Source of the DNA: Candidatus Woesearchaeota archaeon
Lineage (GTDB): Archaea; Nanobdellota; Nanobdellia; Woesearchaeales; GW2011-AR4
Reading direction: 5' to 3'
Length of the DNA: 64,000 bases
Assembly: GCA_018303625.1 (NCBI GenBank)
Contig: JAGVXV010000010.1
Location: 13,411 to 77,410, forward strand
Position 1 is the stretch's first letter, and every line of letters starts with the position of its first letter. The position numbers and the translations under genes were made by a program. Of the stretch, positions 159 to 44,746 are shown piece after piece. The notes below the pieces were generated by a model, which saw only the letters and a list, made by a program, of their open reading frames with translations, was not told the DNA's origin and searched no databases.

Positions 159-779
159 TTATTTATTCTTAAGCCTATAATATGTTAAACGACCTATAAC
201 AAAACCTATTAGTGTTCCGCCAATATGCGCAAAAATATTAACATTAGTCTTATTGTTAGCAAATGCCATCCATAATAAAAAAAGAAGCAGCACTATGCCA
301 GTAATTCTTCTTCTTAATGGAATTTCTTTTAAAAAACAGAGCAAAAAAATTATTAATCCAATTAACGAGAATGCGATGCCAGAACTACCTAAAAAATATC
401 CTGCATTGCTCCCCATTTTTATGCTATACCAATAAGCAATCAAGGTTATCCAAGGTGTGATTAAAACTACACGTAACAAATAATATCTCGCCAATTCTTC
501 CCTCTTTATTTGTTGAAGCAATAAAAACAAGATTGTTAAACAAAGTAAAATAATGACTGTATTGGAAAAATAATGTTGAAAATCATAATTAATAAAATCT
601 TTAGTATATATTTGCCAAAATGAAAAATTATTCCGGTTTAAGGCTAATTGTTCTTTGTAATCTTGAAAAAATATATACAAGATCGACATTATTATTGGCA
701 AGATTAAAGTAAAACTAAATTCTTTGGAGTTAAATTTAAATGATTTTCTCATATTAACTAGAATTAACCATCCTATCAA
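159..779 (-). CDS. Rhomboid-family intramembrane serine protease (polytopic membrane protein)
   Basis: 206-aa multi-TM ORF. It has a 'GSSGIAFSLIG' (GxSG-like) motif and a downstream 'AHIGGTLIGF' (AHxxGxxxG) motif, typical of rhomboid catalytic Ser/His helices. The alternative start M10 (about 752) would remove the overlap with the ispG stop. Confidence 0.55.
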   Translation of the reverse strand: MIGWLILVNMRKSFKFNSKEFSFTLILPIIMSILYIFFQDYKEQLALNRNNFSFWQIYTKDFINYDFQHYFSNTVIILLCLTILFLLLQQIKREELARYYLLRVVLITPWITLIAYWYSIKMGSNAGYFLGSSGIAFSLIGLIIFLLCFLKEIPLRRRITGIVLLLFLLWMAFANNKTNVNIFAHIGGTLIGFVIGRLTYYRLKNK

Positions 780-1809
780 TCTCCTTCATCAGCGTCTCAA
801 CAATTTTCTCTTTCTCAACCTTTCCAATTATCTTTCCATCCTTGTACAATAAATTGGTGTTTCCAGCCCCGCCTACAATTCCCAAATCAACCTTTTTGCT
901 TTCTCCCGGGCCGTTGACAGCGCAGCCCATAACTGCAACATGAATGGGCTTCTTTATTTTTTCAGTTTTCTGCTCCAGCTCCTCAACCATTTTGATTACA
1001 TCAACATGAGTTCTTGCACATGTAGGGCATGAAGTAACTTCAACACCATCATTTCTTAAGCCCAGGCTTCTCAATATCAGTTTTGCAACCCTTACTTCCT
1101 CTTTGGGCTCCTCTGACAATGAAACACGAATTGTGTCGCCAATTCCCTCTGACAATAAAATTCCCATGCCCATAGAGCTTTTTACAGCCCCCGGAACTTT
1201 GCTTCCCGCTTCTGTAACACCCAAATGCAACGGATAATCTTTCTTTTGCGCAAAAATCCTGTAGGCCTGAACCATCCTCGGCACATCAGAAGCTTTCAAA
1301 GAAACAACAATGTCATAAAAATCCAAGTTTTCCAAAATTTTCACATGCCTTAAAGCGCTTTCTGCCATACCTTCCGCGCTGTAGCCGTATTTTTCAAACA
1401 AATCGCGCTCCAAAGAGCCGAGATTAACACCAATTCTCATCGGCAATCCGTATTCTTTTGCAGCATCAACAACCGCCTTAACCCTATCCTCTTTTCCAAT
1501 ATTTCCGGGATTAATTCTTAATTTATCAACATACTTTGCAGCTTCCAATGCAATCCTATAGTCAAAATGGATGTCTGCAATCAAAGGAAGGTTTATGTTT
1601 GCCTTAATTTCCTTCAGGGATTTTGCTGCCTCCATTGTAGGGGCTGAAACCCTTATTATGTCGCATCCAATTTCCTCAAGCTCAAGAATCTGCTTTACGG
1701 TTGCATTAATGTTAGTTGTATCAGTTGTGGTCATTGATTGAATAGCAATAGGGTTATTGCCCCCTATTTTTACATTCCCTATTTTAACTTCTCTTGATTT
1801 CCTTCTCAT
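754..1809 (-). CDS. ispG: 4-hydroxy-3-methylbut-2-enyl diphosphate synthase IspG/GcpE, bacterial type
   Basis: 351 aa, collinear with bacterial IspG over its full length: 'IAIQSMTTTDT', 'IADIHFDYRIAL', 'RINPGNIG', and C-terminal 'CPTCAR...GCAVNGPGE' [4Fe-4S] cysteines. Confidence 0.85.
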   Translation of the reverse strand: MRRKSREVKIGNVKIGGNNPIAIQSMTTTDTTNINATVKQILELEEIGCDIIRVSAPTMEAAKSLKEIKANINLPLIADIHFDYRIALEAAKYVDKLRINPGNIGKEDRVKAVVDAAKEYGLPMRIGVNLGSLERDLFEKYGYSAEGMAESALRHVKILENLDFYDIVVSLKASDVPRMVQAYRIFAQKKDYPLHLGVTEAGSKVPGAVKSSMGMGILLSEGIGDTIRVSLSEEPKEEVRVAKLILRSLGLRNDGVEVTSCPTCARTHVDVIKMVEELEQKTEKIKKPIHVAVMGCAVNGPGESKKVDLGIVGGAGNTNLLYKDGKIIGKVEKEKIVETLMKEIDRMVNSS

Positions 1810-12077: not shown

Positions 12078-12171
12078 GGTGGCCGTAGTTTAATGGTAGA
12101 ATAAGCGGCTGTGGATTGCTTTGTTTGCAAACAGAGCCCGCTTGGAGTGGGTTCGATTCCCACCGGCTGCC
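12078..12171 (+). tRNA. tRNA-His (GTG) with about 22-nt intron in anticodon loop; G-1 encoded
   Basis: Acceptor GTGGCCG/CGGCTGC, an extra 5' G-1 opposite discriminator C73 (a His identity element), U8A9, D-arm GTTT/GAAT, and anticodon stem AGCGG/CCGCT with loop CTGTGG|intron|. The T-arm is GTGGG-TTCGATT-CCCAC. Confidence 0.7.
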
Positions 12172-12258
12172 CTTTTTTATATAAAATGGCGGGTTCGTTT
12201 CAGCTTTGGTGATTTTTATTTTTTTCCGCAAGCTTTTTAAATACCCCCATTATCCTTA

Positions 12259-14642: not shown

Positions 14643-14760
14643 GCGGGGGTGGCAGAGATTCCGGGCCTTTAGCGGGGCTCGCTACTGCACCTGGCCAAAT
14701 GCGCAAGGTCGAGGGCCTTGTCCCTTAGTGGGTGCGCGTGTTCAAATCACGTCCCCCGCA
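14643..14760 (+). tRNA. tRNA-Leu (GAG), class II, with about 32-nt intron in the D-loop
   Basis: Acceptor GCGGGGG/CCCCCGC with A73. D-stem GCA/TGC with D-loop 'GAG|32-nt intron|CCTGGCCAAA'. Anticodon stem CAAGG/CCTTG with loop TCGAGGG. Long variable arm 'TCCCTTAGTGGGTGC'. T-arm GCGTG-TTCAAAT-CACGT. Confidence 0.7.
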
Positions 14761-37158: not shown

Positions 37159-38214
37159 ATGGTAGAGGTAGGAAGAATAGTCAGAGATTTGGAAACTGTG
37201 AGAGAGCATTTACTTAGAACTGGAGCTAGGCCAGAAGTTGTTGACGCATTTAACAGAACTTTTCTACTTGACACTTTAAACACAGATGTCCTATCCAGAT
37301 TTGCATTTTATGGGCTACTGAGACGAACTATAGAAAATTATATTGAAGGGAATTTAATAATAGAACGCCAGGATAGAAGAAAACTGAATGGTGGCGATAG
37401 AGTCAATCTTAGGGGTAAAGCCAAAGAAGATAGAAGAGCCGAAAGAATAGAGGTTACAAGTGACATGATAGATGTAGCTATGTTTGATTTAGGCCGTTTT
37501 AAATTTTATAATGACGAATTTGGGGAATTAGTTGGAGATTTGCTTCTAGCAGTTGTAGGCGGAATGATTAGCAAGAACCTAAGGCCGTATGACGCCACCA
37601 CAGCACCAGTGGATTATGAATCTCTTTTGAGAAACATAGGCAGTGGGGTTGCAAGTAGGGAAAAAGGTGATGAATATAGGGCAATGATAGTCGGGACAAG
37701 ACAGCATAAGACAATAATTAACCGTATTCTTAAAAATGTCAGAAAGGAAGCCATAGAAGAGGCTTATAAACAAGTTAAAGGAAATCCAGAATTGATTAAT
37801 TTGTTTAGAGGTGATTCTTACGCAGAAAAAGAAAGTAACCTAGAGAAGTTTTACAGAGCACAAAAGACTATGCCAATAGTGTTAAGGGTAGGGTATGCCA
37901 TACTAAAAGACATTGAAAAAGAAGTTGAAAGAACTGAGCGCGCCAGAGACCCTGAGAACCTAGCTACCCGCTTGATAGTGGCAAGCACGGATACACAAGA
38001 AGCTGTTAAGATGAGCGGTGATTTGGGAAAAGTTTATTCTTATCAAGATTTAAAGAATGGAAAAATTGGGGGTAAAACGACAAGCCACATGCCTCCAAAT
38101 TTAGTTGAGATGGTTCAAAGGTATGGTGGTGAAGTTTTTCACCGTAGAGTTCTTGATGAAATTCGAGCCTCTCATCCTGACGCTTACAGATTGTTAACAA
38201 GAAGAACTGGTTGA
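37159..38214 (+). CDS. hypothetical protein (351 aa), Arg-rich, atypical codon usage
   Basis: A long, clean ORF adjacent to tRNA-Arg. Its codons are strongly AT3-biased (aga, tta, gta, aca) in contrast to core genes. No enzymatic motif is recognised. It ends with a Walker-A-like 'GKIGGKTTS' near the C-terminus. Confidence 0.4.
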   Translation: MVEVGRIVRDLETVREHLLRTGARPEVVDAFNRTFLLDTLNTDVLSRFAFYGLLRRTIENYIEGNLIIERQDRRKLNGGDRVNLRGKAKEDRRAERIEVTSDMIDVAMFDLGRFKFYNDEFGELVGDLLLAVVGGMISKNLRPYDATTAPVDYESLLRNIGSGVASREKGDEYRAMIVGTRQHKTIINRILKNVRKEAIEEAYKQVKGNPELINLFRGDSYAEKESNLEKFYRAQKTMPIVLRVGYAILKDIEKEVERTERARDPENLATRLIVASTDTQEAVKMSGDLGKVYSYQDLKNGKIGGKTTSHMPPNLVEMVQRYGGEVFHRRVLDEIRASHPDAYRLLTRRTG

Positions 38215-44278: not shown

Positions 44279-44362
44279 TTTTTATTTGTACTTATTCTAA
44301 AATAACAACTACTATTTAAATTTTGCGGGTAGTGAAAGTTTTTAAATAAAAAATAAGCAGAA

Positions 44363-44490
44363 TGGGCCTGCCAGGATTTGAACCTGGGACCATTCTCGGC
44401 TTATTGGCTCTCGATGTCTAACAGCTGGTTATCAGTTTCGCCGCCTCTTCTGGAGACTCGAGCATTCTAACCAGACTGAACTACAGGCCC
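44363..44490 (-). tRNA. tRNA, 128 nt, with a roughly 36-nt anticodon-loop intron and extra nucleotides in the variable region; anticodon probably CTC (Glu) but uncertain
   Basis: Minus strand. Acceptor GGGCCTG/CAGGCCC with A73. An intact D-arm GTTC-AGTCTGGTTA-GAAT. Anticodon stem CTCGA/TCGAG enclosing 43 nt. T-arm CCAGG-TTCAAAT-CCTGG preceded by 22 nt. Confidence 0.55.
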
Positions 44491-44533
44491 GTGATTTTAA
44501 ATTTGGTATGAATTTATGGCGATTTAAAAAAAA

Positions 44534-44637
44534 CGCCCCTGACCAGACTCGAACTGGTGATCTTACGGTTACAGCGCAAAGCTAACAGCCGTACGCTCTA
44601 CCTATTGCTCCACTCATAGTGTCTAAGCTACAGGGGC
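44534..44637 (-). tRNA. tRNA-Asn (GTT) with two introns (D-loop about 20 nt; anticodon loop about 13 nt)
   Basis: Minus strand. Acceptor GCCCCTG/CAGGGGC with G73. D-stem GCTT/GAGC with an interrupted D-loop 'AG|intron|GGTA'. Anticodon stem TACGG/CCGTA with loop CTGTTA|intron|A. T-arm ACCAG-TTCGAGT-CTGGT. Confidence 0.6.
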
Positions 44638-44746
44638 ATCGAGTTCTGGAATAAAAGAATTGTTTAAATAGGTTTCTATGCAAAGATTAAAATAATAAAT
44701 CGGGATTAATTCAGTCTGCCTTCGGCAGATTTTAGTGCAGTTATAA

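Follow-up and report, generated by a model that had tools for sequence, protein, structure and literature searches.

Two adjacent tRNA genes of a Woesearchaeota archaeon with two and three predicted introns of the bulge-helix-bulge type

Which tRNAs are encoded by two adjacent minus-strand units of 104 and 128 nt, and how could tRNAs of 73 and 75 nt be obtained from them? Both units lie in a 64,000-nt stretch of contig JAGVXV010000010.1 from Candidatus Woesearchaeota archaeon (assembly GCA_018303625.1), which was analysed as a whole and is referred to below as the window. A first-pass annotation, made from the sequence, had given the coordinates, the strand and the lengths of the two units exactly. 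The upstream one (44534-44637, minus strand; 104-nt precursor, 73 nt after splicing) is a tRNA-Asn(GUU) gene, and the downstream one (44363-44490, minus strand; 128-nt precursor, 75 nt after splicing) is assigned to tRNA-Ile(GAU) by comparison with orthologues; CCA is encoded in neither. Our assessment, to which we attach a probability of about 0.88, is that these are two functional adjacent tRNA genes of a Woesearchaeota archaeon carrying two (Asn) and three (Ile) introns of the bulge-helix-bulge (BHB) type, which would be spliced out of the transcript.

Identity of the two genes and positions of their introns

The 104-nt unit has the acceptor strands GCCCCUG/CAGGGGC, G73 and the T-arm ACCAG-UUCGAGU-CUGGU, and the 128-nt unit has GGGCCUG/CAGGCCC, A73 and CCAGG-UUCAAAU-CCUGG; the extra sequence amounts to 31 nt (18+13) in the former and to 53 nt (22+14+17) in the latter. 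The Rfam tRNA model (RF00005) covers the full length of the 128-nt gene, scoring 46.5 bits (E 9e-7 when the whole window is searched), and assigns 43 inserted nt to the anticodon loop and about 17 to the variable region. For the 104-nt gene the match is only partial and stays under the gathering score (23.1 bits), because its D-loop insert interrupts the D-arm. Neither gene was reported by ARAGORN when the window was scanned. With introns allowed, a check that the first-pass annotation had proposed, ARAGORN called tRNA-Ser(aga) with one 36-nt intron from the isolated 128-nt precursor, which is a miscall; with the inserts removed in silico it returned tRNA-Asn(gtt) of 73 nt and tRNA-Ile(gat) of 75 nt. 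The identical sequence is present in two independent ENA assemblies (L001 and L002; loci from other assemblies carry handles of this form), and it is therefore no assembly artefact.

Compared with the cloverleaf, the tRNA-Asn unit has 26 nt between the strands of the D-stem and 20 nt between those of the anticodon stem. Intron 1 (44605-44622, minus strand, 18 nt, precursor positions 16-33) is located in the D-loop at site 15/16 within a relaxed HBh' motif, and its removal leaves the D-loop AGUAGGUA, the same as in intron-less orthologues. Intron 2 (44570-44582, minus strand, 13 nt, precursor positions 56-68) occupies the canonical site 37/38 within a weak hBH motif; its removal leaves the anticodon loop CUGUUAA, and three positions of its boundary give one and the same product. 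The spliced 73-nt tRNA folds as a cloverleaf. In a marine relative (L004) the syntenic tRNA-Asn is uninterrupted, 73 nt long and identical in its D-loop and anticodon loop. The initial reading of this gene as tRNA-Asn(GUU) with one intron in the D-loop and one in the anticodon loop agrees with the orthologues and with the ARAGORN result for the spliced form.

The neighbouring gene had been described as carrying about 55 extra nucleotides in two inserts. The amount (53 nt) and the location, in the anticodon arm and at the boundary of the variable loop, were essentially correct, but the extra sequence is resolved into three introns. Intron 1 (44437-44458, minus strand, 22 nt, precursor positions 33-54) is of the HBh' type and is placed at site 30/31, a boundary at 31/32 yielding the same product. 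It is followed by the 7-nt micro-exon ACUGAUA (44430-44436, minus strand), which corresponds to tRNA positions 31-37 and holds the anticodon GAU. Intron 2 (44416-44429, minus strand, 14 nt, precursor positions 62-75) is at the canonical site 37/38, with the same product from a boundary at 38/39, and is followed by the 6-nt micro-exon AUCGAG (44410-44415, minus strand). This second micro-exon (positions 38-43) forms the anticodon stem's 3' strand, and after splicing it pairs perfectly with CUCGA (27-31). Intron 3 (44393-44409, minus strand, 17 nt, precursor positions 82-98) lies at 43/44, on the boundary between the anticodon stem and the variable loop, in a relaxed HBh' motif; its removal leaves the variable loop UGGUC, which is invariant across orthologues. 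All three introns fall inside one 17-nt anticodon arm.

The identity of the 128-nt gene was established from its orthologues, which were gathered by the first 20 nt of the gene from GTDB species genomes and from JGI/ENA metagenomes. This gave 37 distinct precursors from Woesearchaeota, whose intron counts were corrected by hand for three alignment artefacts (divergent T-stems). The loop CUGAUAA, with U33, a purine at 37 and the anticodon GAU, is invariant in all 37 sequences, and every one of them splices in silico to a 75-nt tRNA-Ile(GAU). In the three intron-less orthologues (L039, the L045 group and L047) and in L004 this loop stands directly between the stem strands; in L004 the arm reads AUCGA-CUGAUAA-UCGAU without interruption, the variable loop is UGGUC, and a 33-nt intron is found in the D-loop instead. 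L047 differs from the predicted tRNA-Ile of the window in one compensatory pair, 27:43, which is A-U instead of C-G and which covaries between these two states among the orthologues. When the cloverleaf was laid over 12 spliced orthologues, 100% of 252 cells were paired and five pairs changed on both sides, a covariation that was reached by none of 500 shuffles. GAU thus lies in a 7-nt loop, the body of the tRNA has uninterrupted tRNA-Ile genes among its orthologues, and because the orthologues all keep CUGAUAA and splice to a 75-nt tRNA-Ile, three of them having no introns at all, the comparison identifies the 128-nt gene as tRNA-Ile(GAU) with three introns.

Intron turnover among relatives and bulge-helix-bulge junctions

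How stable is this arrangement? Among the 37 Ile precursors no intron is present in three, one in 17, two in nine and three in eight, and the sites used are 19/20 (D-loop), 30/31, 37/38, 38/39, 43/44 and 45/46, with 37/38 the commonest class. The combination 30/31, 37/38 and 43/44 seen in the window recurs in L020, a metagenome-assembled genome (MAG) from the Black Sea, and in L035, and the 30/31 site is also used in L011, L012, L020, L026, L032, L035, L037 and others. A variant with four introns was sought in the genomes and metagenomes and was not found, the maximum being three. For tRNA-Asn, 12 species (the window included) in which it lies just upstream of tRNA-Ile were compared. The gene has no introns in L004, L007, L017 and L019, only the 37/38 intron in L008, L009, L015 and L021, only the 15/16 intron in L022, both of these in the window and L012, and introns at 30/31, 37/38 and 43/44 in L025. 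For both tRNAs, therefore, inserts are precisely present in some orthologues and precisely absent from others while the mature sequence is unchanged. On this comparison, intron content turns over between close Woesearchaeales species at recurrent sites. Orthologues with zero to three introns and identical mature tRNAs form a compact series in which the gain and loss of introns could be followed, as well as the range of substrates that DPANN splicing endonucleases accept.

In the BHB motif one 3-nt bulge lies on each side of a 4-bp helix H (PMC5829648, PMC4090602). The junctions of all five introns of the window can be drawn with such bulges and such a helix, in the relaxed forms HBh' or hBH. 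The cut in each 3-nt bulge is placed after the second nucleotide (marked by ^ below). At Asn 15/16 the helix GCUU/GAGC is fully paired (4/4), with the bulges AG^A and AA^U and the inner hairpin CACU(AUG)AGUG, and at Asn 37/38 the helix CUGU/GCUG has 3/4 pairs owing to a U-U mismatch, the bulges are UA^G and UA^A, the 5-bp anticodon stem serves as the outer helix and an inner one is lacking. The Ile 30/31 junction has the helix UGCU/GGCG (4/4, including a G-U pair), the bulges CG^A and AA^A and the inner hairpin GUCUC(CAGAA)GAGGC. At Ile 37/38 the helix CUGA/UUAG is again complete (4/4), with the bulges UA^A and AC^A and a minimal inner helix, and at Ile 43/44 the helix AUCG/CGAG has 3/4 pairs, with the bulges AG^A and AA^U and the inner helix GC/GC.

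These elements covary between species. The inner hairpin of Asn 15/16 becomes CAUGC/GCAUG in L012 and L022; that of Ile 30/31 appears as AUCUC/GAGAU, GCCUUU/AAAGGU and GCCU/AGGC in different species; and at Ile 43/44 the inner helix is GGG/CCC at the same site in L020, L035 having the same layout. The 43/44 intron of the L025 tRNA-Asn shows the same pairing pattern (x|||) as Ile 43/44 of the window. In a control of the register, the assumed cut sites of 35 introns were slid by up to 4 nt to either side: the mean number of H pairs was 3.69 of 4 at the predicted register and about 1.5 off it, and at least three pairs were present in 35 of 35 introns as against about 15% off-register. The boundaries in this control had been set by alignment to the mature sequence, and the motif was used to choose among two or three equivalent ones, so these figures are slightly biased.

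Several observations weigh against the assessment given above. Two motifs, Asn 37/38 and Ile 43/44, are weak, with 3/4 H pairs and little or no inner helix, and several intron boundaries can be drawn at two or three positions with the same product. When one precursor is scanned de novo for BHB motifs, many false candidates score equally well, the true introns ranking high without being unique; the motif alone is unspecific, and the exon boundaries therefore rest on the comparison of orthologues. In ViennaRNA the pair probabilities of the H helices are at most 0.24, and about 0-0.05 for the 37/38 and 43/44 introns, while the conformer of pre-tRNA-Ile with all motifs formed has -26.5 kcal/mol against -46.7 kcal/mol for the minimum-free-energy fold. 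In the Ile comparison the first 20 nt of every orthologue were fixed by the search pattern, and the acceptor 5' strand and the D-arm are therefore uninformative. No EndA or RtcB gene was found among about 50 open reading frames of the window scanned with Pfam or in the fetched loci, which are a fraction of the genome only; the tblastn search of the fetched loci, with an unverified M. jannaschii EndA sequence as query, gives a weak negative. Finally, splicing is deduced here from DNA.

Free-energy folding of the precursors and of partly spliced intermediates with ViennaRNA recovered neither the motifs, as a stable conformation of the free precursor, nor a usable order of splicing. The nearest-neighbour model also misses the cloverleaf of the mature tRNA-Ile, and this folding test is therefore of limited weight. 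What speaks for the motifs is their geometry and the comparison between species, not their energy.

A separate feature was observed in pre-tRNA-Ile. Its D-loop segment CUGGUUA (44468-44474, precursor positions 17-23) is perfectly complementary to UAACCAG (44425-44431, precursor positions 60-66), a stretch running from the end of the anticodon loop into the start of intron 2, and the two pair in the minimum-free-energy fold. Many orthologous 37/38 introns begin with ACCAG or ACCGG.

Proposed processing and competing explanations

How would the two precursors be transcribed and processed? A putative promoter, resembling the TFB recognition element (BRE) and TATA box of the archaeal consensus, is read in the sequence as GAAACC-TATTTAAA at 44663-44676 (minus strand), 26-33 nt upstream of the tRNA-Asn 5' end. 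A block GAAAC(C/A)TAT(T/A)TAAAC is found upstream of tRNA-Asn in L004, L007, L008, L015, L017, L019, L021 and L022. A run of six T (44348-44353, minus strand), 10 nt downstream of tRNA-Ile, likely represents an archaeal transcription stop. The spacer between the genes (44491-44533, minus strand) is 43 nt long, has a run of eight T right after tRNA-Asn and, about 30 nt upstream of tRNA-Ile, the A/T-rich stretch CCATAAATT. Most relatives have a spacer of just 3-10 nt, which suggests that tRNA-Asn and tRNA-Ile are co-transcribed; with the longer spacer and its T8 run, separate transcription is possible in the window. A scan of the window for sigma-70 promoters and terminators was also made, but such a scan is not informative for an archaeon.

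We propose that the precursor would be transcribed from the BRE/TATA promoter upstream of tRNA-Asn, and that in each motif a segment of the intron would mimic the normal partner of the exon and form the 4-bp helix with the exon sequence. The splicing endonuclease EndA would then cut both bulges of each motif, an RtcB-type ligase would join the exons into tRNAs of 73 and 75 nt, and CCA would be added afterwards; these activities are assumed because they belong to established archaeal tRNA processing. The Ile motifs occupy consecutive segments of the precursor (about 27-55, 56-76 and 76-99), and cutting them simultaneously would free exons of 6-7 nt. Removal of the 30/31 intron is needed before the 37/38 motif gains its outer helix, and the anticodon stem and the 43/44 motif are in competition; for these reasons the Ile introns are probably removed stepwise rather than simultaneously. 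Stepwise removal has been noted for closely spaced introns in the tRNAscan-SE 2.0 paper (PMC8450103). In what order the introns are spliced becomes a concrete question where micro-exons of 6-7 nt lie in one anticodon arm.

Could the same sequences be explained otherwise? The anticodon CUC, which the first-pass annotation had favoured for the 128-nt gene, would make it a tRNA-Glu(CUC) with a 36-nt intron at 37/38 and a 17-nt intron in the variable region, and removal of precursor positions 41-76 and 84-100 does leave 75 nt that ARAGORN formally calls tRNA-Glu(ctc); in addition, L020 has UCUCCA at the same place. The resulting loop GUCUCCA, however, has G32 and the pyrimidine C37, so that a conserved CUC at 34-36 between U33 and a purine at 37 is not what is found. 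CUC falls within intron 1, and L011 (GCCUUUU), L012 (GCCUGCG) and L026 (GCCUCCU), which share the 30/31 intron, lack it, whereas CUGAUAA is present in 37 of 37 orthologues and directly between the stems in the uninterrupted arms; the body, with its GGGCC... acceptor and A73, is identical to the uninterrupted tRNA-Ile(GAU) of relatives. We consider tRNA-Glu the least probable of the alternatives, hardly credible against the GAU reading. The choice matters, as the genome would seem to lack an essential tRNA if the second gene were annotated as Glu(CUC) or overlooked. That both genes are decaying pseudogenes whose inserts are never removed is highly improbable as well. It would fit with the failure of ARAGORN to find either gene in the window, with the score of the Asn locus under the Rfam gathering threshold and with motifs that are not thermodynamically favoured, but the exons are perfectly conserved, all changes in the stems are compensatory with 100% pairing, and inserts occur only where the geometry of the motif is preserved and their hairpins covary. 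Moreover, the same interrupted layouts occur in separate species (Ile in L020 and L035, Asn in L012), and no other tRNA-Asn or tRNA-Ile was found within the 64-kb window by ARAGORN, Rfam or a search for acceptor and T-arms.

The remaining alternative concerns only the arrangement within tRNA-Ile, and although it is improbable, it has a little more in its favour than the former two. The third intron could be placed at 44/45 or 45/46, with AGGUC as the variable loop, or the anticodon arm could carry the 30/31 intron together with a 31-nt insert at 40/41. AG|...|GUC likewise produces a variable loop of 5 nt, 45/46 is a site used in L009, L019 and L022, and the arm with two introns was the first choice of the gap-penalised aligner. 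On the other hand, U44 is invariant across the Ile orthologues, the 44/45 and 45/46 registers allow at most two H pairs by hand count as against 3/4 at 43/44, and the 43/44 register has the 5' bulge AG^A and an inner helix that covaries between GC/GC in the window and GGG/CCC in L020. The two-intron arm was rejected for the window, where it leaves two mismatches in the anticodon stem; the three-intron solution is common to L020 and L035. Introns of other classes received no support: no Rfam intron family, of group I or group II, was matched even at E up to 10, the inserts being just 13-22 nt long, and within the 104 and the 128 nt all exons are arranged colinearly, which is not the organization of a split or permuted tRNA gene.

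Other interrupted tRNA genes and comparison with known systems

The context of the pair is archaeal: the window contains an archaeal RNase P RNA and an archaeal signal recognition particle RNA (Rfam), and its G+C content is about 40%. A radical-SAM (S-adenosylmethionine) protein encoded 1.4 kb off has homologues of 72-89% identity, the named ones being labelled Candidatus Woesearchaeota or Nanoarchaeota, which makes the host an uncultured DPANN archaeon. In the relatives L003 and L006 the radical-SAM gene is present without an adjoining tRNA pair, and synteny is therefore only partly conserved.

Interruption is not limited to tRNA-Asn and tRNA-Ile, since four of the six tRNA genes of the window (His, Leu, Asn and Ile) are interrupted, by seven introns in all. 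The sixth gene (14643-14760, plus strand, 118 nt), located between an rpoD-like gene and that of L18e, was found by the search for acceptor and T-arms and was detected neither by ARAGORN nor by Rfam at E up to 1. It has the acceptor GCGGGGG/CCCCCGC, A73, a long variable arm and a 33-nt insert in the D-loop (14658-14690) at the 15/16 site, as in tRNA-Asn, with the helix GCAG/CUGC and the 5' bulge AG^A. Without the insert the remaining 85 nt are called tRNA-Leu(gag) by ARAGORN, the loop being UCGAGGG with an unusual C33. The tRNA-His(GUG) gene (12079-12172, plus strand, 94 nt) appears to be interrupted at the canonical position by an intron of about 21 nt and to encode the additional 5' G (G-1), as judged by hand.

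In L025 the tRNA-Asn gene upstream of tRNA-Ile is 136 nt long, and its introns at 30/31, 37/38 and 43/44 occupy the very sites used in the tRNA-Ile of the window. The hairpin loop of its 30/31 intron (CAGA) and the end of its 37/38 intron (GUUAGAC) resemble those of the window, a likeness that hints at an exchange of introns between tRNA genes or at a strong preference for certain sites; the occurrence of the triple layout in two different tRNAs suggests the same two possibilities. In related Woesearchaeota a tRNA-Ala(UGC) with G3:U70 shares the first 20 nt used in the search for Ile orthologues (L014:6267-, L029:1710-, L048, L068, L071). Its anticodon loop holds an intron and its T-loop a second insert, and in L014 and L029 the gene is located just downstream of the 16S rRNA 3' end.

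What do these genes mean for the lineage as a whole? A broader picture can be offered tentatively, at somewhat less than even odds: short BHB introns would turn over rapidly in Woesearchaeales and reoccupy the hot-spots 15/16, 19/20, 30/31, 37/38, 38/39, 43/44 and 45/46, through transfer between tRNAs or strong site preference, under an endonuclease that is reportedly of the supposedly strict alpha4 type, and interrupted genes could explain tRNAs that appear to be missing. Because ARAGORN missed Asn and Ile, and both ARAGORN and Rfam missed Leu, inventories of DPANN tRNAs obtained by standard tools are likely to be incomplete. A 2026 survey of complete Nanobdellota genomes found tRNAs 'missing' by tRNAscan-SE and discussed loss or split genes (bioRxiv 10.64898/2026.05.13.725050); heavily interrupted genes are an obvious alternative to tRNA loss or splitting in Nanobdellota.

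Three further observations concern the window and its relatives more generally. The window encodes a full-length GcpE/IspG (754-1809, minus strand; Pfam E 5e-150) of the bacterial-type methylerythritol phosphate (MEP) pathway of isoprenoid synthesis. Archaea normally use the mevalonate route, and a GcpE/IspG of the MEP pathway is unexpected in them; the gene may be a horizontal acquisition. The 351-aa protein encoded at 37159-38214 (plus strand) has a partial match to GGDEF (diguanylate cyclase; E 1.5e-8, residues 100-146), a domain rare in archaea. Finally, L007, L009, L013, L015, L017, L021, L025 and L026 carry Asn-Ile genes of the Woesearchaeota type and yet are titled 'uncultured Methanosarcinales archaeon'; these automated labels of MAG contigs of GTDB representatives look wrong.

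Among the closest known systems, tRNAs with multiple introns and relaxed BHB junctions are known from Thermoproteales such as Pyrobaculum and Thermofilum (PMC4033280, PMC4090602, PMC8450103), and three introns is the published maximum for an archaeal tRNA gene (PMC4033280, PMC8450103). As here, close relatives within Thermoproteales differ in intron content, and different tRNAs carry similar introns. Whereas those are hyperthermophilic crenarchaea whose EndA belongs to the (alpha-beta)2 class with a crenarchaeal loop, the present host is a mesophilic DPANN archaeon of about 40% G+C, for which an alpha4 type with an 'L3' loop is expected from the literature (PMC5829648). The view that multi-intron tRNAs are diagnostic of particular lineages, expressed in the first-pass annotation, holds loosely, as the host does not belong to the classic Thermoproteales and its close relatives have zero to three introns. 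Sites 30/31 and 45/46 are already listed as intron sites, whereas 15/16 and 43/44 are absent from the same list, which is not exhaustive (PMC4090602).

Within the superphylum of the host, disrupted tRNAs have been described for DPANN (PMC5829648), including ARMAN with its epsilon2 EndA (PMC3239211). Kaneta et al. (2018, PMC5829648) reported DPANN EndA with the extra 'L3' loop together with more disrupted tRNAs, in a set that included one Woesearchaeota genome, and noted that incomplete DPANN tRNA sets point to undetected disrupted genes. Their data are genome-level tRNAscan-SE counts, without the Asn-Ile pair, its intron sites or its turnover between species. The split and tri-split tRNAs of Nanoarchaeum equitans and Caldivirga maquilingensis share the BHB-type junctions and the endonuclease, and split sites of that kind include 30/31 and 37/38 (PMC4090602). 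In contrast to those, the pieces here are colinear on one transcript, as expected for splicing in cis, with nothing that points to separate loci. The genes of the window are a clear new example of a published archaeal phenomenon, namely multi-intron tRNAs and the disruption of tRNA genes in DPANN. What is specific here is the corrected identity of tRNA-Ile, the three introns in one anticodon arm, the turnover within Woesearchaeales and the same triple layout in the tRNA-Asn of L025.

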